Source of the DNA: an uncultured Actinomycetota bacterium
Lineage (GTDB): Bacteria > Actinomycetota > Actinomycetes > JAFAQI01
DNA length: 64,000 nt
Assembly (NCBI GenBank): GCA_963770565.1
Contig: CAVYQE010000006.1
Span: 1 to 64,000 of the forward strand
Reading direction: 5' to 3'
The notes below the pieces were generated by a model. That model was given only the letters and a program-made list of their open reading frames with translations. It was not told the origin of the DNA and did no database searches. The translations under genes were made by a program, and so were the position numbers. Below, one piece after another: positions 1 through 43,953 of the stretch (the stretch's first letter is position 1; each line of letters begins with the position of its first letter).

Positions 1-19
1 GATTGGATATGCAGCAGGC

Positions 20-576
20 ATGAGTGACGTACTCGCCCGGAGCATCGCCGCAACTTCGAGAGCGCGTTGCGGCTCATGGAGGCGGCACTCGCGGACTGCC
101 CCGATAGGTTGTGGGAGGCCGACCTGTGGCCCGGAGATGGGACCACACGTCGTCTCCCGCAGGGCGGACTGCATGGCTCCGCGACCTGGTTCCTCGGCTA
201 CCACGCGCTGACCTGCCTCGACTACGACCTCGGCGGAGACTTCGAGCCGTGGGTGCCTCTAGCGGCTTTCGATGAGAACACATACTCGTTTCCGAACCGC
301 GTCTTCACTAGGGCGGAGCTCCTCGAATACGTCGACTGGTGCCGCCGCCGAGCGCGGCAAAGCTGCGAGACTCTTACCGAGGAGTTGGCTCTGCGTCCGC
401 TGCCAAGCACACATCGATACGCGGGCACCCCTTACGGCGACATTGTCACTGCCATTCCACTCCACGTGGTTGAACACGCCTCGCAGATCCGCCAGTTCCT
501 CAGCAGCTCAGGCGTCTCGGTGCAACCGATGCCCGGCGACCAGGGCTACACAGGATCAATCGCAACCGAGCGGTAA
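20..576 (+). CDS. DinB/YfiT-like family protein, apparent 1-nt frameshift near 47-51
   Basis: ORF 67..576 has DinB-type motifs (WFLGYHAL...HVVEHASQI). ATG at 20 gives MSDVLARSIA, which joins RNFESALRLMEAAL in the frame of 67 if one base is restored. Confidence 0.7.
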
Positions 577-598
577 GTGATGCCACTCTGCACGTTCC

Positions 599-1138
599 TC
601 AGGTAGCCGTTGTAGTTGAGATCCAGTAGTGGCGTTTCGTTTCCCGCTGAGGGGTCGCCGGCAAGACTTGGGTTAGTCGACCACCGCAACGCTCGATGAC
701 GCGGGCGGACGTGAGGTTGTCGTCGTTGCAGGTGAGCAGTACCTGATCCAGACCGAGGTCGGCGGCGATGCCGATCGCTTGCCTCAGCATCTGGGTCGCA
801 TGACCACGTCGCCGAAACTGCGGCCGCACGGCGTAGCCGACGTGGCCGCCAACCTCCGCGAGGTGCTCGTTCAGGCAATGGCGGATCGAGACGATGCCGA
901 TCAGCTCGCCTGAGGCTTCGGCAGCCAGGATTGTGACCGGGACCCACCCAGCCGGCAGGTCATAACCGTCGGCCATGCGAGCGATCCGGTCGAGATAGTC
1001 GCTCCACGTGTCGTCGGAAGCCCAACCTTCGAGAAGATCGAAGCCGTCAGCAGCTAGTTCGTCATGTGCTGCCAAAGCGTCCGTCTCGTCGCGCAGCAGT
1101 AGTGGCCGCAGTCGGACCTCATTCTCTGTAGTCGCCAC
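599..1138 (-). CDS. GNAT family N-acetyltransferase
   Basis: C-terminal part of ORF 599..1861: GGHVGYAVRPQFRRRGHAT (acetyl-CoA motif A) and TCNDDNLTSARVIERCGG. Start placed at GTG 1138; the upstream extension overlaps other genes. Confidence 0.85.
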   Translation of the reverse strand: MATTENEVRLRPLLLRDETDALAAHDELAADGFDLLEGWASDDTWSDYLDRIARMADGYDLPAGWVPVTILAAEASGELIGIVSIRHCLNEHLAEVGGHVGYAVRPQFRRRGHATQMLRQAIGIAADLGLDQVLLTCNDDNLTSARVIERCGGRLTQVLPATPQRETKRHYWISTTTAT

Positions 1139-1234
1139 CAAACCAGGATCGCGCAGCGCATCAAACTTGGGGCGAACCGATGTGCCGATCCCCGTCGGCG
1201 ACCGCCCGCCCGCGGCAGGGGGTAGGAATGCGGT

Positions 1235-1438
1235 ATGGAGATCCGCCGGCTCTTCTCTTGGAGGATGAACCTCTACCGCCTCATCGTGGGAGCAGTAGTC
1301 CTGGCCATCGTCTTGCCGTCCTGGGCGGCCGGGGTGCGGGCAACCTGGCTTGTTGTGACCGCGTGCATTGTTGTGGTTCTTGCAGGGGTCATTGTCGGCA
1401 GGCGGGTGCCACTCGTCCGAGGATGGCTGCGCCGCTGA
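1235..1438 (+). CDS. Small membrane protein, two hydrophobic segments
   Basis: 67-aa ORF with two hydrophobic stretches and a basic C-terminus. Alternative start at ATG 1266-region after GGAGG. Confidence 0.45.
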   Translation: MEIRRLFSWRMNLYRLIVGAVVLAIVLPSWAAGVRATWLVVTACIVVVLAGVIVGRRVPLVRGWLRR

Positions 1439-1536
1439 TGGCAATGGCGCCGAAACGGTCATGCCCGTGTGCGATGCCGGGAGTGCCAGAACATCGAACT
1501 CGCGGGGCTCGCCAGCCGCCGCTCCCGATGAAGGCG

Positions 1537-1752
1537 CTACTCGGGTCTTGAGAGGTACAGCGGGAAGAACACGATCCAGAGGATCAGGCATCCAGCGGCC
1601 CACGCCGTTGGGGTGCGGATGACGAGGTCTCCGGCGCGAACCGTCACCGGACGGCCGGCTCCCATGCGCTGCTTCGCGTCGCCATAGACCCATAGATCGA
1701 GGGCGATCCCCAGGCCGAGAACGATCAGCGGGGCAAGCGCTGTAGCGGACAC
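1537..1752 (-). CDS. Small membrane protein (71 aa), paralog of 6274..6489
   Basis: 3' part of ORF 1537..2163 from GTG 1752; DLWVYxDAK...WAAGCLILWIxFFPLYL is shared with 6274..6489. Confidence 0.7.
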   Translation of the reverse strand: MSATALAPLIVLGLGIALDLWVYGDAKQRMGAGRPVTVRAGDLVIRTPTAWAAGCLILWIVFFPLYLSRPE

Positions 1753-1860
1753 GGGGCACACGGCATAAGTGATGCCATAACGGAGCGGGGCCTCCCGCTC
1801 CTGTGAGTACCGCAGGAGACTGCGGTTGCTCATAAACCCACATGGTGAGGGAGGCCACCA

Positions 1861-2907
1861 ATGAGTGACGGTATCGCTAGGAAGAAGCAGTTCGTCGGCG
1901 TCGACCTGCATCTGCACCGGTCGGTGATCGTGCGGATCGACAACCGCGGTCGCGAGCTCGAGTGCGTGCGGATCGACAACTCTGTGTCCGGCCTTGTCGC
2001 TGAAGTGGCGAAGGCTGGGCAGGGTGCGCCGGTCGCGATCGAGGCGACATATGGCTGGTACTGGGCGGTCGACGCGTTGCAGGCGAAGGGTTTCGAGGTG
2101 CATCTCGCGCACCCGTACGGGATGAAGCAGATGCGGAAGCGGCGCCGGGTGAAGACTGACCATGCGGATGCGCTGGAGTTGGCGCGGCTGATGCGGCTTG
2201 GTTCACTGCCGGAGGCCTACATCGCCCCGGTCGAGCTTCGGGAGCTGCGGGAGCTGGTCCGCCACCGCCAGCAGCTGACGAAGGTCGCGACCTCAACCAA
2301 GGGCGGGATCCGCGCCGGGTTGGCGAAGCACGGGATCCGTCTGCCGGTCAGCAAGCTGAACACGGTTGCTGGGTCGGATCTGCTCGATGAGCTACGGCTT
2401 CCGGGCTACTACGGGCAGCGGCTCGCCGCGCAACGCCGGATGATGATGCTCGTCGAAGACGAGCTGGCTCGGGTGGAGCGCGAGCTGGACCGTCGGCTGA
2501 AGACCGACCCGGACTACCGGCGGCTGCAGAGGATCAAAGGGATCGGTCCGATCCTCGCGGCGGTGTTCGTCGTCGAGATCGGTGATGTGAGCCGGTTCCG
2601 CAACGCGGCCGCGATCACCTGCTGGGCCGGGCTGACTCCACGGGTGCATGAGTCCGACCGGCGCCGACACGACGGCTCGATCAGCAAGGAAGGCTGCGCC
2701 CTGGTCCGGTGGGCCGCAGTCGAATCGGTGCAACGCCAATGCGAACCAGTCATCCGAGCCGTCCGGGACGACATCCTCGCCCGCCGCGGGAAGAGAGCGA
2801 AGAACACCGCGAAAGTCGCCGCCGCCAGGCGGATGCTCGAGGTCGTCTACTACACGCTGCGTGACGGTGAGGCCCGTTGCCTGACCAAGCCGGTCGCCGC
2901 CGCGTGA
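1861..2907 (+). CDS. IS110 family transposase/recombinase (DEDD RuvC-like + Transposase_20)
   Basis: GVDLH, IEAT and KTDHADA (DEDD residues), IKGIGPILA, WAGLTPRVHES (serine finger), VAAARRML; RBS GGGAGG upstream. Confidence 0.95.
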   Translation: MSDGIARKKQFVGVDLHLHRSVIVRIDNRGRELECVRIDNSVSGLVAEVAKAGQGAPVAIEATYGWYWAVDALQAKGFEVHLAHPYGMKQMRKRRRVKTDHADALELARLMRLGSLPEAYIAPVELRELRELVRHRQQLTKVATSTKGGIRAGLAKHGIRLPVSKLNTVAGSDLLDELRLPGYYGQRLAAQRRMMMLVEDELARVERELDRRLKTDPDYRRLQRIKGIGPILAAVFVVEIGDVSRFRNAAAITCWAGLTPRVHESDRRRHDGSISKEGCALVRWAAVESVQRQCEPVIRAVRDDILARRGKRAKNTAKVAAARRMLEVVYYTLRDGEARCLTKPVAAA

Positions 2908-2919
2908 ACACCGTCAAGA

Positions 2920-3125
2920 CTTCGTGCGGGTCGAAGTAGCGGCATGACCCACCCTCGGGTGCGGTCGACGAAGTGAATGACCCCACGACCCTGGAACCCA
3001 GGGACGCTCGCACGGCTTCATGCTGACCACCACGTCGCGAAGGGATGCCTGACAGCAAACTGGCTGTCGCCGAGCTCTGCCATTTCAAACTGAAGCCGAA
3101 CCTGACAACCACATAGCGACGCCGG
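2920..3125 (+). ncRNA. Putative bridge/seek RNA of the IS110 element
   Basis: Stem 2928-2932/2979-2983 closes an internal loop carrying CGGCAT (2940-2945) and AAGTGA (2971-2976), which match the insertion target. A second domain (stem 3033-3038/3116-3121) carries AGGGATGCC, identical to the IS right end. RNA ends are approximate. Confidence 0.7.
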
Positions 3126-3359
3126 CAACACAGTCTGCGTCAACCACGAGACGGCCTCAACACCGTTCGTCCTCGCGCTCCGCGCTCCGGGCGCTGCGTG
3201 TTGACCCCGCCCCGCGATCGACGCCGCCCTTGATCTGCCGACCATCGCCGAAGAACGCTCAAAACAAACAGTTGACGGCCCCACTCCGTTCAGGGATGCC
3301 GTTCTTCGACGCTCGATCGTCGCGCACTTCGTGCACGTGATCCGGCGTAGCGTGCGCGA

Positions 3360-3746
3360 ATGGCACGCCTTGCTGACATCGTGTTCGACTGCGAACATCC
3401 CGCCTCGCTGGCGCGGTGGTGGGCCGCGGCGCTCGATGGCTACCGGGTCGCTGCTTACGACGAAGTTGAACTTGAGCGGTTGCGGGCCCGGGGGGTGTTC
3501 GATCCTGAGGATGACCCGAACGTCTTGGTCGAACCGAAGAGTGGCGAAGGGCCGCGCTTTTGGTTTCAACGGGTGCCAGAGCACAAGGAACATAAGAACC
3601 GGCTGCACCTCGATCTGCGCGCGGACGACCTCGAAGTTGAGGTGAGCCGCTTCGTTGAAATGGGCGCGACGGAGCTTTACCGACTCGGGACCAACGTGAC
3701 CTTGACGGACCCTGAGGGCAACGAGTTCTGTCTCGGACCGGGCTAG
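3360..3746 (+). CDS. VOC/glyoxalase-like family protein
   Basis: DIVFDCEHPASLARWWAAAL...FQRVPEHKEHKNRLHLDL...DPEGNEFC; TAGCGT-N6-ATG leaderless-type start. Confidence 0.9.
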   Translation: MARLADIVFDCEHPASLARWWAAALDGYRVAAYDEVELERLRARGVFDPEDDPNVLVEPKSGEGPRFWFQRVPEHKEHKNRLHLDLRADDLEVEVSRFVEMGATELYRLGTNVTLTDPEGNEFCLGPG

Positions 3747-3930
3747 CGCGAGGCGATGTCGCGGCCGGTCGGTCCGTTTCAGGGCGCCCGCGAAGTGTGA
3801 TCGCATGTGCTTGCCGGCGTTCACACTGTCGCTATTCGTCTGCGAGGCTGTATTCGACGATCACAACTTGGGATCGGGACGGCGGGCATTGCATCGGAGT
3901 TGAGGGCGTGAGGGAGGGAGCGGAAGCGGT

Positions 3931-4581
3931 ATGCGCATCATCGGAGCTGGCCTCGGTCGGACGGGAACCAACTCGCTGAAGCTGGCGCTCGAGCGGCTTC
4001 TTGGTCGCCCGACCTATCACATGATTGAGGTGCAGCGGCATCTTGACCATGTCCCCACCTGGCGCGCAGCCCTGCGCGGCGAGCCCGTCGACTGGGAGCC
4101 GGTCCTCGGCAATTACGCGGCGACTGTGGACTGGCCAGGTGCGGCGGTCTGGCGTGAGCTAGTTGCCGAGAACCCGGAGGCGGTCGTCCTGCTCTCGACG
4201 AGACGTGACGCGGCCACCTGGCTGGCGAGCGCGCGGGCGACGGTTATGGACAGCTCTGATCGGCTGGAGGACGAGCCCGACATGCCGGGATACATGGCGA
4301 TGGTCCGAGAGATGTACGAGATGTTTGACCCCCTCTGGCGGGATGACGGCGCTGCGATGACTGCTTATGAGCGGCATGCAGCGTCAGTGCGTCGCGAGGT
4401 CCGCGCGGATCGGCTCGTCGAGTGGCAACCGGGCGACGGTTGGGGGCCACTATGCGTCGCGCTCGGCGCGGCGGTGCCGCCAGAGCCTTTCCCACATGTC
4501 AACTCGACAGAGGAATACCGCGCGCGGCTCAGTCAGATCGAGAGCCGGCTGGCTGCTTCGAGAGACACCATCCACGAATGA
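3931..4581 (+). CDS. Sulfotransferase-family (P-loop) protein
   Basis: IIGAGLGRTGTNSLKLALE, YHM, VDWP, GDGWGPLC, PFPHVN motifs. Confidence 0.9.
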   Translation: MRIIGAGLGRTGTNSLKLALERLLGRPTYHMIEVQRHLDHVPTWRAALRGEPVDWEPVLGNYAATVDWPGAAVWRELVAENPEAVVLLSTRRDAATWLASARATVMDSSDRLEDEPDMPGYMAMVREMYEMFDPLWRDDGAAMTAYERHAASVRREVRADRLVEWQPGDGWGPLCVALGAAVPPEPFPHVNSTEEYRARLSQIESRLAASRDTIHE

Positions 4582-4714
4582 TCGCCATACAGGTGCCGAC
4601 ATGGTCACCGGCTCGCGCGAATTGTCATCGAGCGGTCGTTCTCGATCGTTCGCGTCTCTGAGCGCGACGGTCTGGAGGCCGCTATGTTCGGCCGTGCTGA
4701 CCCGGGAGGTTGAT

Positions 4715-5137
4715 GTGCAGATCGAGTCTGTAACCAGTGTCGCTGTCATCACAGCGGACGCGCCAGCGAGCCGCGCGCTCTACATGGAGGCTCTCGGGCT
4801 GCCCCTCAAGCAGCTCGACGGTGACTACTTCGCGAGCGGCGAGATACCTGGGTGCAATCACTTCGGTGTGTGGCCCATCGAACAAGCTGCCGAAGCTTGC
4901 TTCGGCACACGGTCGTGGCCGGAGGGCATCACAAGACCTCAGGTGAGCGTGGAGTTTGAGCTGGCATCTGCGACGGCTGTGAGCGACGGCGTGCGGGAAT
5001 TGCGGTCCCGTGGATACGAGATGCTGCACGATGCCAAGGTCGAACCGTGGGGACAGACCGTGGCACGTCTTCTGTCGCCGGAAGGCGCCGTCTTCGGGCT
5101 CTCGTACGCCCCGTCGCTGCACGAGCATGTGACATGA
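4715..5137 (+). CDS. VOC/glyoxalase family protein
   Basis: GTG 4715 after GGAGG; HFGVWP...PQVSVEFE...EPWGQTVARLLSPEG. Confidence 0.85.
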   Translation: MQIESVTSVAVITADAPASRALYMEALGLPLKQLDGDYFASGEIPGCNHFGVWPIEQAAEACFGTRSWPEGITRPQVSVEFELASATAVSDGVRELRSRGYEMLHDAKVEPWGQTVARLLSPEGAVFGLSYAPSLHEHVT

Positions 5138-5254
5138 CGAACGCGATGCACGGCGGGTAGTGCCGGTTCGCGAGGGCGGCTCGGTTTGGTCGTGACGCAA
5201 TCAAAACCGCGCTGAGCCGGCGTAAACGATCCTGGGCTGCGGCAGACTTCCAGC

Positions 5255-6072
5255 ATGTCGCTGTGGAATGAGCCCGTCCGTGATCTGCGGTCGCTCGCCA
5301 CTGCTGAGCGGCAGGGTTTGCTGCGCTTGCTGGCCGGGATGACCGATGCCGAGTGGCTCGCGCGAGCTGCCATTCCGGGATGGACGGTCAAAGACATCGC
5401 GCTTCATTTGCTCGACGATGACCTGACATGACCTGGCTTTCTCAGGAGCGTGATGGCGAACTTAGCGGGCTGATCAACATGTCAGATCGTCAGATCTTTC
5501 CGAGGTTGCTAGCAGAGAAGAACCAACGGTGGGTAGACGCGGCTCGGGTGATGAGCCGACGCGTGGTCGAGGACCTGCCGCAGTGGAGTGGCGAGCAAGT
5601 CGACGCGCTTCACGCGGGCCGGGACCTACTTGACGAAGGCTGGGTCTCATGGGCCAGCGACGAGCCGGTGCCCTACTGGTTCAACCTGGCGCAGGAGTTC
5701 ACCGAGCGTTGGGTCCATCAACAGCAGATGAGAGAGGCCGTGGACCGCGTGGAGGACCACGACGTGACCCTTCCGGACGTGCTACGTACCTTTATTTGGG
5801 CCTTCCCTCACCAATTCCGCGGTGCCGTCGGGGCGCGCGTGATCCGAATGAGGATCGACCCCCTGGGCGACTGGACGCTCAGCGCCACGGACGACGGCGG
5901 CTGGAACCTCTCCACAGGATCGCCCGGCAGTGCAGATGCTCGTTTGCATCTGACGGCTGATGCGGCGTGGCGCATGCTTACCGGCGCCGAGGTGCCTGCA
6001 GCGTCGATTACGGCAGAAGGTGACGCCGCCATAGTTGAGGCGCTGAGCATGGTGCGCGCGATCATCGTGTAA
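5255..6072 (+). pseudogene. Maleylpyruvate isomerase (MDMPI)-family protein broken by a 5-nt insertion
   Basis: 5255..5431 encodes ...PGWTVKDIALHLLDDDLT*; 5428..6072 continues TWLSQERD...ERWVHQQQMREA. The junction GACC-TGACA-TGACCTGG reads as a 5-nt near-duplication. Confidence 0.75.
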
Positions 6073-6273
6073 GTGATGCCGGTCCAGATCATTCGGATTC
6101 GCCGCGACAGCCGAGCGCCAGTGCAAGTTCTGCTCAAGGCCGCTCGAGGAACAGAAGTGCCGTTACTTCACACAGTTGACCCAGCAAGCAAAGCGTGAGT
6201 AACGCACCTATAGTCTGCCGCCGACAAGCGGCGGACGGTGCCGCGGGCAAGAGCGGCGCATATCGTTCAGAGG

Positions 6274-6489
6274 GTGTCCTTTGCTGCGCTCGCGCCGCTG
6301 GTCATTCTTGGTATCGGGATCACCGCGGACCTGTGGGTCTACGCGGACGCGAAGAGGCGTGCAGACTCCGGGAGTCCGGTCGTTTTCGAGGCGGGCACGT
6401 TCGTTATCGACACACCCGCCGCATGGGCAGCTGGATGCCTGATCCTCTGGATCCTGTTTTTCCCGCTCTATCTCACGTCCCGCGAATAG
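6274..6489 (+). CDS. Small membrane protein (71 aa), paralog of 1537..1752
   Basis: GTG 6274 preceded by TATCGT-N7; 47/71 identical to 1537..1752 by manual alignment. Confidence 0.72.
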   Translation: MSFAALAPLVILGIGITADLWVYADAKRRADSGSPVVFEAGTFVIDTPAAWAAGCLILWILFFPLYLTSRE

Positions 6490-6559
6490 GCCCATCGCGT
6501 GCGGGCGAGTGTCGGCCGCTATGGGCACTTCTTGTTGCGTCGTTGATAGGAATGAAGGC

Positions 6560-6967
6560 GTGAACGAGTTCACGTTCTCGCGGGTGGCTCCGGTTATCCC
6601 GGTGGCCAATCTCAAGCGGGCGCTGCGGCGATATCGCATGCTCGGCTTCTCAGTGCGCTCGTATGGCGGACCGGCCGAGTATGGATACGTCGAGCGAGAT
6701 GGCGTCGAACTTCATGTGAGCGAGTCGCCGGATCACGACCGCCATCACGGCGCCGAGGTGTACCTGTTCGTCTCTGATGCTGACGCGGTGTACGCCGCTT
6801 GGTTGGCTTCCGGCGTGAAGGGCCGGTTCATCCGGCCCCACGACACGGACTACGGCGTTCGCGAGTTCGCTTTCGTCGATCGCGACGGGACGGCGCACCG
6901 AGTCGGCTCGCCGCCAACCCAGAACGGACGAGTCATCGGCCATTCGGGATCGGAACCCGGCGAATAA
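6560..6967 (+). CDS. VOC/bleomycin-resistance-like protein
   Basis: VAPVIPVANLKRALRRY..LGF...YLFVSDADAVY...DTDYGVREFAFVDRDG; start at GTG 6560. Confidence 0.85.
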   Translation: MNEFTFSRVAPVIPVANLKRALRRYRMLGFSVRSYGGPAEYGYVERDGVELHVSESPDHDRHHGAEVYLFVSDADAVYAAWLASGVKGRFIRPHDTDYGVREFAFVDRDGTAHRVGSPPTQNGRVIGHSGSEPGE

Positions 6968-7039
6968 CGCCGGCTCGCGGCGCTGGCTGTGGACGAGCTC
7001 GCGCCTATTGTTCGCTCTTATGATCGGATCGTGGTGCGA

Positions 7040-7756
7040 TCAGCGCCGGGGTGGGAGGGCGTCGAACCCCGCGTCGGCCAGCCACTGTCCGGCCCTTCCG
7101 GTTCGGGTCTCTGCCGAGTACGAGTACCAGGAGGAACGCAGGTCGTCGTGGTCATCGAGGACTCGGCGAAAGCGGGAGAAGGCGCCACGGCCATCGATGG
7201 CGTCGAGTAGCCGGTCGCGGAGCGCGGGATCCTGAACTGTCGTGGCGAACTCGCGCATGTCCTCCCACGCCTCGCGCGAACCCTCATTGGGGATGAACAG
7301 GTACCGATCCGGATCGTCCTCCGGGTCCGGTCGCTCCCCGTCGCCCACCCAGTCATCAAGGGCCCCCTCGGGCCAGGCATCGCCGGTGTTGCAATCCAGC
7401 ACACCGCCGAAGCCCATCTCGAGAGGTCCCTCGAGCAGGTCGGAGACACCGTCGAGGTCGGCGCGGATGCGGCGCCGGCCGGGCGGTAGACCGTCGACGA
7501 TCGCGACGAGCAGCTCCGCCAGCTCAGCGTCGCCGACCCATGACCGTTCAGTGAGTCGCCTCGCGAGGGCCTTGCAGGTGTCCGCGCAGCCGGAGGGGTT
7601 GTCCGGAGCGAGCGCCAAGATCGTCTCCCCGGCTTCCTGCAAATGCGGCTGCAGTGACTCAGCCTGGACGAGCCCCGACAGCTGCATGAGGTCGCCGGTG
7701 GCGGCCGCGATGCGCCATGATCGGACCAGATCTCGCGCGCCCTCGTCCGTCGTCAT
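7040..7756 (-). CDS. UPF0158-domain protein
   Basis: C-terminal SREAWEDMREFA...RLLDAIDGRGAFSRFRRVL...WL is typical of UPF0158; start at ATG 7756. Confidence 0.75.
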   Translation of the reverse strand: MTTDEGARDLVRSWRIAAATGDLMQLSGLVQAESLQPHLQEAGETILALAPDNPSGCADTCKALARRLTERSWVGDAELAELLVAIVDGLPPGRRRIRADLDGVSDLLEGPLEMGFGGVLDCNTGDAWPEGALDDWVGDGERPDPEDDPDRYLFIPNEGSREAWEDMREFATTVQDPALRDRLLDAIDGRGAFSRFRRVLDDHDDLRSSWYSYSAETRTGRAGQWLADAGFDALPPRR

Positions 7757-7837
7757 GAGCCGAGCCTTGCCCAGTCGCCGACCGCCCGCAACTTCGACGT
7801 TCTTGGTACCAGGTACCGGGCCGTCGACCAAGATCGT

Positions 7838-7962
7838 TGGGCCACATCTGGGCCACATCTAGTGGCCCAAGGCGGTAAATCAGGGTCTCTGGCGGGCAAG
7901 GACGCCGCACTTGTGGAGGCTCGAAAACCGGCCCTGACCTGCGAAAACGCTCCGAAAAAGCC
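7838..7962. promoter_or_regulatory. Putative att-junction with integrase arm-type sites next to the tRNA 3' end
   Basis: Tandem TGGGCCACATC x2 (7838-7859), inverted GTGGCCCA (7862-7869) and TGACCTGC (7935-7942), all within ~125 bp of the tRNA CCA end. Confidence 0.55.
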
Positions 7963-8036
7963 TGGAGCGGGTGACGGGAATCGAACCCGCACTGTCAGCT
8001 TGGGAAGCTGATGTTCTGCCATTGAACTACACCCGC
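7963..8036 (-). tRNA. tRNA-Gly (CCC)
   Basis: Reverse strand GCGGGTGTAGTTCAATGGCAGAACATCAGCTTCCCAAGCTGACAGTGCGGGTTCGATTCCCGTCACCCGCTCCA: cloverleaf, anticodon CCC, T-loop GTTCGA, encoded CCA. Confidence 0.97.
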
Positions 8037-8086
8037 GCGCGCCGAAATCGGGCTCGGCGACCGGCCCGAGGATAGCGCCAGCGGCG

Positions 8087-8680
8087 TTACGACGACACCT
8101 TCAGCGGCTTGCTCGCGACCGGCGTACCGGTCACGGCGGCGCCGGTGCCGTCCAGGCGGAACATCCGGACGTTGTACTGCCCGCTCGGGATGTCGACCGT
8201 GAACGAGCCGTTGGCCTTGCACCCGCTCGACAGCTTGGTCGGGAAGACCGCGATCTCGGTGCTGTTGGCCGAACCGCCCGGGTCGGGGATCGGATGCAGC
8301 TGGCCGGGATTGGCGCCCGGCACCAGCCGGCTGACCCCGATCGCGATCACAAGATGCATGTTCGCCGGGCCAGTGCCCGACCATCGGATCGTCGCGCCGC
8401 GATGGATGCTCGCCGAGCTCAGCGCGATCGCCGGCGTCTTGCAGTTGGTCACGAGCGTCGGCGCGCGGGCGTCGAGGCCATTGCGGATCAGGATCGCGAC
8501 GACGATCGCCGCCACTCCCCCGAGCGTCCACTTCCAGGTCGAGCGCTTCGGCAGGTCGACCGAGGTCGCCAGCGGCTTCGGCATCTCGGTGGCGCCGGCC
8601 GCCCGCTCGCGGCGCTGGAACTCGGTCTCCTCGAAGGCGCGTTCCTGCCAGTCGCGGCGGTTGCGCTTCTTCTCTGCCAT
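8087..8680 (-). CDS. Hypothetical single-pass membrane protein
   Basis: 197-aa ORF 10 nt downstream of the Fe-S oxidoreductase; one TM segment then a beta-rich domain with two Cys. Confidence 0.7.
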   Translation of the reverse strand: MAEKKRNRRDWQERAFEETEFQRRERAAGATEMPKPLATSVDLPKRSTWKWTLGGVAAIVVAILIRNGLDARAPTLVTNCKTPAIALSSASIHRGATIRWSGTGPANMHLVIAIGVSRLVPGANPGQLHPIPDPGGSANSTEIAVFPTKLSSGCKANGSFTVDIPSGQYNVRMFRLDGTGAAVTGTPVASKPLKVSS

Positions 8681-8689
8681 CGCGCTCGG

Positions 8690-10783
8690 CTATTCGGCGG
8701 GATCGGGTCCGGCCGGCGCCTCGGTGGCGGTGGCGGCCGCAGGCCGCAGGCCGATCGAGTTGGCGAGCACCTGCGCGATGTCGATCACGGTCACGCCCTG
8801 CGCTTCGCCGTCGGCGCGCTTCGAGGTCACCGCGTCGTCGAGCATGATCAGGCAGTAGGGGCACGACGTCGCGATGATCTCCGCGCCGGTGCCGAGCGCC
8901 TCTTCGGTGCGCTCGACGTTGACCCGCTTGCCGATCCGCTCCTCCATCCACATCCGCGAACCGCCTGCGCCACAACAGAATCCGCGCTTGCCGTGCCGGT
9001 GCATCTCGACCCGCTCCAGGCCCGGTACGGCGTCGAGCACCGTGCGCGGTGCGTCGTACTCGTTGTTGTGCCGGCCGAGGTAGCAGGGGTCGTGGTAGGT
9101 CAGCTTCGCGACGATCGGGTCCTGCGGCGTCAGCTTGCCTTCCGCCACCAACCGGCCGAGCAGCTGCGAGTGGTGCACGACCTCGTAGTTGCCGCCGAGC
9201 GCCGGGTATTCGTTGCCGATCGTGTTGAAGCAGTGCGGGCACGACGCGATGATCTTCTTCACGCCGGCGCCGTCGAGGGTCTCGATGTTGGCCTTCGCCA
9301 TCTCCTGCCAGAGGTATTCGTTGCCGAGCCGGCGGGCCGGGTCGCCGGTGCACGACTCCCCCGCGCCGAGAATCGCGAACTTCACCCCAGCCGCGTGCAT
9401 GACCCGTGCGATCGCTTGCGTCGACTTGCGCGCGCGGTCGTCGAGCCCACCCGCGCAGCCGACCCAGTACAGCCACTCGACATCGTCGGGGATCCGGCCC
9501 GACACGACCGGGATGTCGAACTCGATCGCCTCGGTCCACTCCTCGCGCATGTCGGCGCGCAGGCCCCACGGGTTGCCGTGGTTCTCGACGTTGCGCAGCA
9601 TCGTGCCCGCCTCGCTCGGGAACGACGACTCCATCAGCACCTGATAGCGGCGCAGGTCGAGGATCGTGTCGACGTGCTCGATGTCGACCGGGCACTCCTC
9701 GACGCAGGCGCCGCAGGTCGTGCAGGCCCACAACGCGTCGGGGTCGATGACGTCCGGCACCAGCGACACCGGCTCCATCTCGGAGCCGTCCTCGGCCTTC
9801 GCGCCGAGTAGCCGGTCCGCCTGCGCGAACATCGAGTCGCGCAGGTTGGTGATGATCAGCTTCGGGTTGAGCGGCTTGCCGGTCGCCCAGGCCGGGCACT
9901 TGTCCTGGCAGCGCCCGCACTCGGTGCAGGCCAGGGTCTGCAGCAACTGTTGATGGTGCAGGTGCTCGATGATGCCGGCGCCGAGGACCGCGTCCTCGTC
10001 CTCCATCAGCTTCTCGAGATCCGGCGTCGTACCCAGCGGGCCGAGCGCCTTGGGCTGCCGCTTCATCGAGGCGTTCAACGGCGCGGTGAAGATGTGCATG
10101 TGCTTGCTCGAGAGCACGAAGATCAGGAAGCCCATGACGACCGCGATCTGGGCGACGATGAAGATCGTCTCGAACGCCTCGCTGTCCGGCGTGATGTACG
10201 ACGTGGCCTTCGACGCGAACGCCCACCAGCCGTCGTGCTGGTAGGGGAAGTAGCCGCTCTGGATCTGGGCGCCGCGGTAGAGCAGCAGCGTGGCGATGAC
10301 CAGGAAGATCATCCCGAGGACCAGGAACGCCTGGTCGGTGTGCGAGCCGTAGAACCGGGATCTGCGGTCGAGCCGCCGCGGCGAGTTCTTCAGCCGGATC
10401 ACGGTGAACACGACCAGCGCCAGAACGACCGCGGTCGCGAAGCCGTCCTCGAGCACCGCGACCGCCCGGGTGTGGCCGATCCACGGGAGCGCGAAGTCAC
10501 GGCTGAACAGCGCCCCGTAGGCCTCGATGATCGTCAGGAACAGCACCACGAAGCCCCAGAAGGTCAGGGCGTGCGCGATCCCGGCGACCTTGACCTTGAA
10601 CAGCTTGCGCTGCCCGAAGACGTCGATCAGCTGGGCCTTGATCGCGCCGAAGACGTGCGGGCGCCGTTCGGGCGGGATCGGCGCGCCGGCGAGGACCAGC
10701 CGGGCCAGCCACTGGACCCGGTAGGCCGCGGCGGCGAGCGCGACGACGGTGACAACCAGCCCGGCAACGAGTCGAACGGTCAC
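8690..10783 (-). CDS. Membrane-bound Fe-S oxidoreductase (FadF/heterodisulfide-reductase-like, CCG domains)
   Basis: N-terminal TMs; CTECGRCQDKCP and CTTCGACVEECP ferredoxin motifs; CPHC, YHDPCYLGR, CCGAGG. Confidence 0.92.
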   Translation of the reverse strand: MTVRLVAGLVVTVVALAAAAYRVQWLARLVLAGAPIPPERRPHVFGAIKAQLIDVFGQRKLFKVKVAGIAHALTFWGFVVLFLTIIEAYGALFSRDFALPWIGHTRAVAVLEDGFATAVVLALVVFTVIRLKNSPRRLDRRSRFYGSHTDQAFLVLGMIFLVIATLLLYRGAQIQSGYFPYQHDGWWAFASKATSYITPDSEAFETIFIVAQIAVVMGFLIFVLSSKHMHIFTAPLNASMKRQPKALGPLGTTPDLEKLMEDEDAVLGAGIIEHLHHQQLLQTLACTECGRCQDKCPAWATGKPLNPKLIITNLRDSMFAQADRLLGAKAEDGSEMEPVSLVPDVIDPDALWACTTCGACVEECPVDIEHVDTILDLRRYQVLMESSFPSEAGTMLRNVENHGNPWGLRADMREEWTEAIEFDIPVVSGRIPDDVEWLYWVGCAGGLDDRARKSTQAIARVMHAAGVKFAILGAGESCTGDPARRLGNEYLWQEMAKANIETLDGAGVKKIIASCPHCFNTIGNEYPALGGNYEVVHHSQLLGRLVAEGKLTPQDPIVAKLTYHDPCYLGRHNNEYDAPRTVLDAVPGLERVEMHRHGKRGFCCGAGGSRMWMEERIGKRVNVERTEEALGTGAEIIATSCPYCLIMLDDAVTSKRADGEAQGVTVIDIAQVLANSIGLRPAAATATEAPAGPDPAE

Positions 10784-11192: not shown

Positions 11193-13054
<1,862 letters not shown>

Positions 13055-43814: not shown

Positions 43815-43953
43815 CCCCACCGATGGGCCACGGGTGTGCCGATACCCCACCGATGGGCCATCAATGGGGCCATAGCCCCACCAATGGGCCATGCGTGGGC
43901 CAATAGCCCCACCGATGGGCCATGCGTGTGGCCGTAGCCCCACCAATGGGCCA
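43815..43953. repeat. Family C tandem array, 5 x CCCCACCRATGGGCCA at 30-31 bp period
   Basis: Units start at 43815, 43845, 43876, 43907 and 43938; lies between convergent genes. Confidence 0.92.

Follow-up and report, generated by a model that had tools for sequence, protein, structure and literature searches.

A run of small, unrelated genes at the left end of a 64-kb stretch of DNA (the window) from an uncultured, high-G+C actinomycetotal soil bacterium raises the question of how such genes came to lie side by side, and whether an 11-letter sequence repeated at three of their junctions, TAAGTGATGCC, marks the site at which they were captured. The original prediction, made from the sequence alone, was an integron-like platform in which single-gene units are serially inserted at a short core. 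We arrived at a different reading, to which we assign a probability of roughly 55%: the genes are cargo of an integrative island at a tRNA-Gly gene, the motif copy at 1766 is a junction of an IS1111-type insertion sequence (IS), the two other copies are relics of earlier insertions, and there is no integron-like platform.

Contig C6 of the source genome (G000; 4,428,154 bases; contigs are referred to as C1, C2, C6, and so on) starts with the window, its first 64 kb, so that there is no further sequence into which the window could be extended leftward. Genomes of relatives carry codes from G001 to G060, with a comparison set of 40, and fetched loci or contigs carry L codes. Three unpublished genomes (G032, G040, and G060) enter the tallies, that is, the 11-mer counts, the BLAST searches with the island, the homolog searches, the search for copies of the IS, and the counts of ARGTGCCGTTC; beyond these tallies, no claim depends on them. 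The methods used were BLAST, Pfam profiles, Rfam, ARAGORN, RNAalifold, nhmmer, the TIGR02249 profile, first-order Markov simulation, and shuffles. Short-read contigs came from soil runs, with a depth over the window of 0 to 4 and many bins empty.

Bases 1 to 7958 of the window are the tRNA-proximal cargo end of an integrative island of ~14 kb, the boundary of which is marked by two features.

7963 to 8036, minus strand: tRNA-Gly(CCC) gene, the integration site of the island (ARAGORN; Rfam, 72.1 bits)
7959 to 8009, no strand assigned: 51-bp attachment (att) repeat, the 3' part of the tRNA gene, repeated with 98% identity at C2:880898-880948, the far end of the island

When bases 1 to 9000 were compared with the assembly by BLAST, the segment from 3297 to 8011 was found again at the end of C2 with 96 to 98% identity. 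On C2, the cargo is separated from the distal tRNA repeat by a HicB-like gene, the genes of a tyrosine integrase and an AAA_30/TraI-like helicase, and an open reading frame (ORF) of 588 amino acids. The integrase (418 amino acids; L001:5761-7017, minus strand) lies ~0.8 kb from the distal repeat and matches Phage_integrase (56.9 bits), SAM_3, and Phage_int_M, and the relaxase-like helicase matches AAA_30 with 183.6 bits. A recombinase had been predicted to lie to the left of the window or to be the IS110 enzyme itself. One is indeed present to the left, on C2; it is the ordinary tyrosine integrase of a tRNA-Gly island, however, and not a cassette integrase. The congener G003 has an empty site: on its contig C216, the left flank known from C2 and the tRNA flank lie 18 bases apart, without the island, bases 1 to 1225 corresponding to C2:878554-879778 (92.8% identity over 1,225 bases) and base 1244 onward to C6:7935 onward. 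The G+C content is 0.63 to 0.67 in the island versus mostly 0.68 to 0.72 beyond it, and G+C at third codon positions (GC3) is 0.72 to 0.80 in island ORFs versus 0.93 to 0.95 in the adjoining core genes. The island block as such was not found in the 40 relatives, which yielded matches to single genes only, at 67 to 80% identity and on separate contigs. The cargo block is horizontally acquired. In its integration at the 3' end of a tRNA gene with a direct repeat, its distal tyrosine integrase and relaxase-like helicase, its G+C content below that of the core genome, and its empty site in a close relative, the island agrees with known tRNA-gene islands and integrative mobilisable elements, and we see no essential difference. 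The ~1.1 kb at C2:879778-880897, which separates the point where the G003 homology ends from the distal att repeat, may have been left behind by an earlier insertion at this tRNA gene.

The end of C2 is a second, poorly resolved copy or strain variant of the same island locus, poorly resolved because part of it, ~600 bases at C2:887700-888290 (L001 about 11700-12290), is noise rich in C homopolymers at the place where the window has its first two genes, which are DinB-like and GNAT. This noise looks like the consensus of mixed or sparse long reads, and because of it small differences between the two island copies are untrustworthy and the end of C2 is not reliable base by base. The copies differ only by two IS elements and the noisy stretch. 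They may be tandem or allelic, and the last bases of C2 do not settle which. Where short-read contigs cover the window, they agree with its sequence, and in three of four runs they join base 3347 to base 1 of the window, so that a second copy of the following element, as far as 3347, must precede the DinB-like gene, as it does on C2.

3297 to 3360, plus strand: junction element of ~65 bp that precedes the first VOC gene and begins with the right half of the target of the insertion sequence IS#1; second copy at C2:887566-887638

On C2 this element precedes the DinB-like gene, and G003 has a copy with 84% identity. It occupies two genome loci only (nhmmer gave 3 hits counting both island copies, with the next best at an E value of 0.25). 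Near-identical stretches also occur on different contigs elsewhere (C3/C5 and C9/C2 start/C11 start), and the assembly therefore contains alternative copies (haplotigs) at other places too.

The nature of the motif is clearest at 1766, where it coincides with one end of an insertion sequence.

1772 to 3298, plus strand: IS1111-type insertion sequence IS#1, 1,527 bp, present in three copies with 99.8% identity; the boundary is ambiguous by a 2-base TG overlap
1766 to 1776, plus strand: motif copy 2, a chimeric junction (1766-1771 target DNA, 1772-1776 IS left end), as judged from the junctions of the three IS copies
1779 to 1792, plus strand: left subterminal inverted repeat, preceded by a terminal extension of 7 bases; 13 of its 14 positions are complementary to the partner at 3277-3290, beyond which an extension of 8 bases follows
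1861 to 2907, plus strand: DEDD transposase of the IS110 family, 348 amino acids (PF01548, 74.3 bits; PF02371, Transposase_20, 74.6 bits)

The segment from 1763 to 3309 recurs in two other places in the genome at 99.8% identity, and IS#1 is absent from the C2 copy of the island. All three copies share their ends, ..RGTG|ATGCCATAACGG (left) and ..CAGGGATG|CCGTTCT (right); the left flanks end in TAAGTG, GAGGTG, and TAGGTG, and the right flanks begin with CCGTTCTTCGA, CCGTTCTTCGA, and CCGTTCTCGA. Unoccupied paralogous sites were found for all three, and each reads GTG|CCGT: C2:888540; C6:173832, where more than 50 bases match the flank of the IS#1 copy at C2:4648xx exactly and a 1.2-kb repeat ends; and C1:8117xx, a paralog of the flank of the IS#1 copy at C6:1797xx. 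From the unoccupied sites and the shared copy ends, it follows that the element extends from 1772 to 3298 and that the motif at 1766 is made up of six target bases and five IS bases. This copy of the motif did not exist before the IS inserted. The original prediction had already suggested a tie between the motif and an IS110-family enzyme, and at this position the tie is that of an element to its own left junction.

By its sequence features, IS#1 is an IS1111-type member of the IS110 family. It has 89 noncoding bases before the transposase gene (1772-1860) and 391 after it (2908-3298), and its left extension is 7 bases long (ATGCCAT). Diverged copies with the same ends occur in G044 (73% DNA identity), where the left junction is GAAGTG|ATGCC and the right one ATGAATG|CCGCTC, and in L044, a contig of a public Nocardioidaceae metagenome-assembled genome (68% amino acid identity). 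A scan of the genome collection with the transposase returned 1 locus. IS#1 inserts between the G and the C of ..A-R-G-T-G|C-C-G-T-T-C-T.., with TG as the overlap. An IS-free joint of 1771 to 3299 would then read TAAGTGCCGTTCT, whereas TAAGTGATGCCGTTCT would mean that the motif itself is the true target. One of the other IS#1 insertion points is associated with a 1.2-kb repeat (C2:463596-464805 and C6:173829-175039, 99.7% identity) that ends 9 bases beyond it, such that IS#1 sits at the tip of a repeated element at that locus. This position recalls IS4321 and IS5075, which lie at the ends of transposons.

The target word is also used by a second element. In the window it stands unoccupied at one further place.

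6155 to 6164, plus strand: AAGTGCCGTT, an unoccupied target at which the C2 copy of the island carries IS#2 (IS110 family, 1.6 kb)

The IS#2 transposase is 25% identical to that of IS#1 and scores 36.5 and 51.6 bits for PF01548 and PF02371, respectively. Each of the three IS#2 copies has ARGTGCCGT(T) next to one of its ends. Two different IS110-family elements of the IS1111 type thus use one target word, the 10-mer form of which, ARGTGCCGTT, occurs 34 times on the two strands of the genome. We rejected an abundance like that of repetitive extragenic palindromic (REP) elements (ARGTGCCGTTC occurs 16 times in G000 versus 14 for the reversed control, and roughly twice as often as the control in relatives) and also rejected a hairpin or attC-like target, the surroundings folding no better than shuffles. 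As side observations, AGGTGCCGTTC recurs with a 51-base period at the start of a contig (G015:C75:28-140) and four times within 4 kb at G022:C106:37609-41446. A second mobile region of the source genome, C6:171000-188000 (L002), contains genes for a VirD4/TraG-type coupling protein, an extracytoplasmic function (ECF) sigma factor, and an Imm1-like protein, together with one IS#1, one IS#2, four ARGTGCCGTT words, and an IS630-type (DDE_3) element of which the genome has four identical copies.

How IS#1 would find this word is suggested by three segments of its noncoding tail.

2966 to 2982, plus strand: guide-like segment (i), in which GAAGTG corresponds to the left target flank (read from the sequences of three variants)
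3039 to 3049, plus strand: guide-like segment (ii), GAAGGGATGCC, which matches the IS right end and the first two flank bases (AGGGATG being the right end)
3150 to 3212, plus strand: conserved structured RNA scaffold in the noncoding tail of the IS (RNAalifold, 7 sequences: 21 pairs, 6 with compensatory changes on both sides)

Segment (i) reads GAAGTG here, where the flanks end in (T/G)A(A/G)GTG, and in G044, where the flank is GAAGTG; in L044, it reads GAACTG and the flank AACTG. Segment (ii) contains AGGGATG-CC here, beside a right junction of AGGGATG|CC; in L044 it is AGGAATGGC (AGGAATG-GC), with the junction AGGAATG|GC, and in G044 it is AGGAATGCC (AGGAATG-CC), with the junction ATGAATG|CC. 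The guide-like segments thus covary with the flanks in all three variants compared. The scaffold is common to IS#1, IS#2, and elements in G017 and G039. Because of this covariation and of the behavior of the family, in which RNA guidance has been shown experimentally for other IS1111/IS110 members, target choice by IS#1 is most likely RNA guided. In G017, two copies of a short element (L025 and L034; G017:C182 and G017:C53) keep the IS scaffold, have no transposase gene in their common part, and both end in ..CCAGTG|CCGTT; this short element may be a nonautonomous derivative.

Two copies of the motif, the orphans, have no IS beside them.

574 to 584, plus strand: motif copy 1, orphan, its TAA being the stop codon of the DinB-like gene; looks like an IS left junction
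6070 to 6080, plus strand: motif copy 3, orphan, its TAA being the stop codon of the MDMPI gene; looks like an IS left junction and recurs in the second island copy, on C2

An exact pattern search agreed with the original prediction that the 11-mer stands at 574, 1766, and 6070, always on the plus strand, and nowhere else in the window, and the ORFs confirm that the TAA ends the DinB-like and MDMPI frames. In the whole genome, counting both strands, there are five exact copies: these three, one at C2:891368 that is the same locus as 6070 on the second, noisy island copy, and one at C1:859694, inside a 308-amino-acid ORF of the opposite strand (GC3, 0.82), that is probably due to chance. With up to two mismatches, the window has 11 matches versus 5.30 expected, a number reached in 1 of 100 shuffles; matches of this kind at 3039 and 3290 are there because of guide-like segment (ii) and the IS right junction. 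The 40 relatives have 9 exact matches in 6 genomes (one of them in G040) versus 5 for the reversed control, and most of the 8 that were fetched lie inside long ORFs, so that the motif occurs in relatives at the background level.

Could the three copies simply have coincided in a low-G+C island? Some 11-mer occurred at least three times in 28 of 400 islands simulated with a first-order Markov model, and the C1 copy shows that chance-type matches inside genes do arise. The simulated triples were not limited to A/T-rich words, however, and among the 33 11-mers of the window that reach at least three occurrences within 8 kb, TAAGTGATGCC is alone in having 5 or fewer G+C letters, the others having 6 to 10. 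By a hand calculation, a triple of an 11-mer with 6 A/T letters is expected with a frequency of ~4e-5 per 8 kb, and three of the five genome copies of this one lie within 5.5 kb on one strand. The concentration in the window, the A/T-rich exception, and the chance estimates together lead us to conclude that the repeat is real and local, and we regard coincidence as extremely improbable.

The same cannot be said of the shorter core, of the TGCCG type, that had been noted, as weak evidence by itself, in further spacers. RGTGCCG occurs 7 times in the island versus a mean of 4.93 (standard deviation, 2.57) over 4,348 genome windows of 8 kb, 25% of which have as many or more; together with three related patterns, it falls at the 75th to 88th percentile of these windows, which is background. 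In an unbiased count over 13 spacers (1,325 bases), no word was found in more spacers than in shuffles at widths of 8, 9, and 10, the fraction of shuffles reaching the observed number being 0.28, 0.55, and 0.28, respectively. At width 11 the motif family was the sole word to exceed the shuffles (1 of 60 reached it), with four spacers, two of them IS junctions. The predicted enrichment therefore stands for the full 11-mer, which is strongly concentrated in the island, and falls for any word common to most spacers at widths of 8 to 10.

The orphan at 574 is not a polishing artifact, a possibility excluded by a short-read contig from a soil run that covers 486 to 713 with 0 differences; at 6070, the best short-read contig stops at 6073. 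A homolog of the DinB-like gene in G002 (80% identity) ends with a degenerate motif that keeps 9 of 11 letters and has one extra base, and homology stops there, whereas the homolog in G001 is without the motif. The degenerate motif of G002, which has the same position, means that the site at 574 is old. The prediction that homology would break at the motif is thus borne out for the DinB-like gene and not at 6070, where the two island copies are colinear; between them, homology breaks at 6164, the IS#2 site, instead. A metagenome scan with the MDMPI protein gave 7 loci, all of 34 to 45% identity and too distant for boundary tests. In the distant homolog of L051/L052 (45% amino acid identity), the stop codon is followed by 3 bases, ATGCCGG, 6 bases, and then GAAGTGCCGC.

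We favor the view that both orphans are relics, the weakest step of our reading. Earlier insertions of the IS#1 lineage would have occurred directly after the stop codons of two DinB-superfamily genes, and the IS would then have been lost, possibly through a deletion between the two copies of GATGCC, a 6-base repeat on either side of an inserted IS, leaving exactly the target plus ATG. Abortive one-ended strand transfer would be an alternative origin. For another IS110 element, the accessible text of a preprint (bioRxiv 10.1101/2025.10.25.684509) reports that, with a TBL-only RNA, LT-RD transfer to new targets is ~10-fold more active than the second step. The idea of relics rests on this readier formation of LT-RD junctions and on the old degenerate copy in G002. 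Miniature IS derivatives were considered in place of relics and rejected, as there are no subterminal repeats and the sequences 580-640 and 6076-6160 are unlike any IS or anything else.

Several points weigh against this reading as a whole. Past 584 or 6080, nothing beyond ATGCC(A/G), 5 to 6 bases, resembles any IS end or interior, and the bases after the supposed scar, CCACTCT at 574 and CCGGTCC at 6070, fit the right flank CCGTTCT at 5 of 7 positions. Two independent losses, each leaving exactly ATGCC, would need a precise and so far conjectural mechanism. The homology between the DinB-like gene and its G002 counterpart breaks off immediately past the motif, as a crossover site would predict and a simple scar would not. 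In the IS110 element tested in the preprint just cited, as far as its accessible text goes, excision rejoins the donor and the original copy stays, and the portions of the literature considered here describe no footprint of the relic type for IS110/IS1111 elements. As for the element itself, its right extension has 8 bases (CAGGGATG) in IS#1 and in the copies of G044, G025, and L044, compared with the 3 that IS1111 elements usually have; CGAAGAACG at 3249-3257, considered as a third guide, is the complement of the right flank at this locus, is kept in G025 despite a different flank, and stands in a different register in G044; and the fold of the whole noncoding tail is no better than that of shuffles (z, -0.79).

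The position of both orphans, overlapping the TAA of genes of the DinB/MDMPI superfamily, raises the alternative that they are a functional host signal unrelated to the IS and placed at the stop codons of these genes, such as a restart site (TAA-GTG-ATG) for a coupled small ORF downstream or a binding site, whose identity with the IS junction would be coincidence or mimicry. The ATG at 6076 does open a frame of 44 codons, the G002 homolog keeps 9 of the 11 letters, and the L051 homolog has ATGCCGG at the same offset past its stop. The frame after 574 has only 8 codons, however, the two downstream frames share nothing, and that of L051 has only Met-Pro in common. A chance match of an IS junction to a preexisting 11-mer within 8 kb has a probability of ~6e-4 by a hand calculation from base composition, the G001 homolog of the DinB-like gene is without the motif, and the motif is at background in the 40 relatives. 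We therefore consider a host signal unlikely.

The idea closest to the original prediction is a cassette platform in which single-gene modules are moved at an AAGTG|CCG word by an IS110-family recombinase acting in trans. Non-IS modules such as 580-1771 and 6076-6160 would then have TAAGTG|ATGCC as their left junction and, as their right junction, the next ..AAGTG|CCGTT. Each orphan is indeed followed by ARGTG|CCGTT on the same strand (6070 by 6155, 74 bases on, and 574 by 1766/3299), and this 10-mer is one of only 34 in the genome. The segment 580-1771 begins with ATGCC and ends with GGCAT-AAGTG, the homology of the DinB-like gene to G002 stops right after the motif, and ATGCCGG followed by GAAGTGCCGC past the stop of the L051/L052 homolog has its like in a similar word past the G021 homolog of the second VOC gene. 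Precedents exist, too: in the accessible parts of two reports, an IS110-family transposase circularizes the non-IS module ssr9 in Pseudomonas putida (PMC12288879), and an IS1111 transposase with its seekRNA moves cargo flanked by IS ends (PMC11187229). Against this, the motif stands at only 2 of ~10 non-IS junctions, and no word is common to most spacers. The putative modules have neither subterminal repeats nor similarity to IS ends beyond 5 to 6 bases, one of them is 85 bases long and holds no gene, and the two island copies differ by no such module. Short-read contigs show no circle and no IS-free or alternative joint, which is weak evidence at a coverage of 0 to 4, and the word pairs were noticed after the fact. 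Such a platform appears quite improbable to us.

With classical chromosomal integrons (IntI, attI, attC), the locus shares a run of small, unrelated, stand-alone accessory genes whose content is not common to relatives. It differs from them in having no IntI, attI, or attC and no site common to most junctions and in being a tRNA-integrated island with a phage-type integrase; and whereas integron cassettes mostly have one orientation and a common promoter, genes here lie in both orientations. The TIGR02249 profile of IntI gave 11 matches in the whole genome, none over the cut-off (best, 77.9 bits versus 265). The core of attC has the consensus GTTRRRY, and the absence of attC-type hairpins noted in the original prediction held in junction folds and in Rfam, which returned nothing from the region besides the tRNA. 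The junction elements and both orphan sites fold no better than shuffles (z values of -1.36, +0.11, -0.87, -0.34, and -0.10); the G003 copy of the junction element has a z value of -2.72 and a different fold. Hairpins of the GTGCC type, sought in a crude scan, turned up only as chance pairs within coding DNA. With no common site at most junctions and no IntI, and with serial capture at a core not shown, we do not uphold an integron-like capture platform and retain instead the tRNA-Gly island with its IS junction and relics.

IS#1 can be placed among known elements. The IS1111 family with seekRNA includes ISEc11, ISKpn4, ISPst6, and ISPa11 (Siddiquee et al. 2024, PMC11187229), and the available part of that report gives as its marks subterminal inverted repeats of ~11 to 13 bases and terminal extensions that comprise 7 (or 6) bases at the left end and 3 at the right. 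As these elements are described there, IS#1 resembles them in its DEDD transposase, its subterminal repeats with a 7-base left extension, its long noncoding region downstream, its one fixed target without target duplication, and its short noncoding stretches matching the target and the IS ends. It differs in its right extension of 8 bases rather than 3 and in its host, an uncultured high-G+C soil bacterium. Unlike those of the seekRNA elements, the RNA of IS#1 and its activity are putative. As its target, IS#1 has neither an attC site nor a REP element nor the end of a transposon; it uses a word of low copy number that lies where genes of mobile islands meet.

A further comparison is offered by the IS1111-attC group, reportedly the subject of work by Tetu and Holmes in 2008 and by Post and Hall in 2009. 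Its members ISPa21 and ISPst6 lie at cassette boundaries of an accessory array, with a uniform orientation with respect to a short conserved site, according to the accessible text of PMC11187229, and in this the present locus is alike. It is different in having no integron or IntI, no attC-type palindromes (z values from -2.72 to +0.11, with a fold that differs from copy to copy), and mixed gene orientation. In the modular transposition of ISPpu9 (PMC12288879) and in the "direct transfer" of IS110 (bioRxiv 10.1101/2025.10.25.684509), again as far as the available text goes, the enzymes act on junction-like sequences outside a complete IS, with left (LT-RD) junctions readier than right ones; we infer a link from these precedents to the orphan copies here, where neither circles nor strand-transfer products nor polymorphism of modules were observed.

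The remaining genes of the cargo are as follows.

20 to 576, plus strand: DinB-like gene, apparently frameshifted near base 48 (ORFs 20-211 and 67-576, in different frames; DinB_2, 15.5 bits, E value of 0.025, below the cut-off)
599 to 1138, minus strand: GNAT acetyltransferase (PF13302, 57.5 bits; PF00583, 50.3 bits)
1537 to 1761, minus strand: small membrane-protein gene, a paralog of 6274-6489 (73% DNA identity of 1542-1752 to 6482-6274); no Pfam match
3360 to 3746, plus strand: VOC/glyoxalase-like gene 1 (PF18029, Glyoxalase_6, 102.3 bits)
3931 to 4581, plus strand: sulfotransferase (PF17784, Sulfotransfer_4, 181 bits)
4715 to 5137, plus strand: VOC-like gene 2, a weak match (PF12681, 21.3 bits, below the cut-off)
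5255 to 6072, plus strand: MDMPI/DinB-superfamily gene, split into ORFs 5255-5431 and 5428-6072 (PF11716, 29.3 bits, on the first ORF)
6509 to 6967, plus strand: VOC/glyoxalase gene 3 (PF00903, 22.3 bits)
7040 to 7858, minus strand: UPF0158-family gene (PF03682, 41.3 bits)

The gene content first proposed is largely recovered, with GNAT, Glyoxalase_6, Sulfotransfer_4, MDMPI_N, Glyoxalase, UPF0158, and the IS110-family transposase above the Pfam cut-offs. The "DinB" and second VOC assignments fall below them, and the DinB-like and MDMPI genes look frameshifted. Mixed orientation is confirmed, with GNAT, the small gene at 1537-1761, and UPF0158 on the minus strand and the remaining genes on the plus strand. 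Homologs of the DinB-like gene in G001 and G002 are 79 to 80% identical. Near base 48 (40-50), its frame differs from that of the G002 homolog, and an extra A is present in the short-read contig X2 and absent from X3; the frame change may be a population polymorphism or an assembly error. The split of the MDMPI gene, read from the sequence, is caused by a 10-base tandem duplication (ATGACCTGAC / ATGACCTGGC, 5417-5436), and reflects either a pseudogene or an assembly error. The likely GTG start of the gene at 1537-1761, also read from the sequence, lies ~10 bases from the IS#1 insertion point. A homolog of VOC-like gene 2 in G021 (75% DNA identity) has GAAGTGCCGTTC 22 bases past its stop, and the window has TAGTGCCGGTTC 20 bases past. 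A hairpin at 3788-3832, after the first VOC gene (-12.3 kcal/mol; z, -2.90), is the only clearly stable one in the spacers of the island and is terminator-like, without a T tract. Farther along the window, at 43815-43950, a k-mer table showed overlapping 11-mers repeated three times with a spacing of ~30 to 31 bases, a short tandem repeat.

Taken as a whole, the region is ordinary biology, a tRNA-gene island with detoxification-type cargo, peppered with site-specific insertion sequences. For annotation, the lesson is that the left junction of an IS110/IS1111 element can pass for a host "junction motif" and that unoccupied paralogous sites settle the question. For the family, the locus provides new natural IS1111-type elements from uncultured high-G+C soil bacteria that are useful for mining bridge/seekRNA recombinases, with two unrelated IS elements that have one target word and with guide-like segments that covary with the flanks across three diverged variants. 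That the two orphan junction words are live sites and not relics, at which an IS1111-type recombinase and a guide RNA move single accessory genes into and out of the island, we consider very unlikely. If they were active, the island would show IS110-type recombinases shuffling host genes, and its cargo region would function, under RNA guidance, like the cassette array of an integron, in a lineage without integrons.

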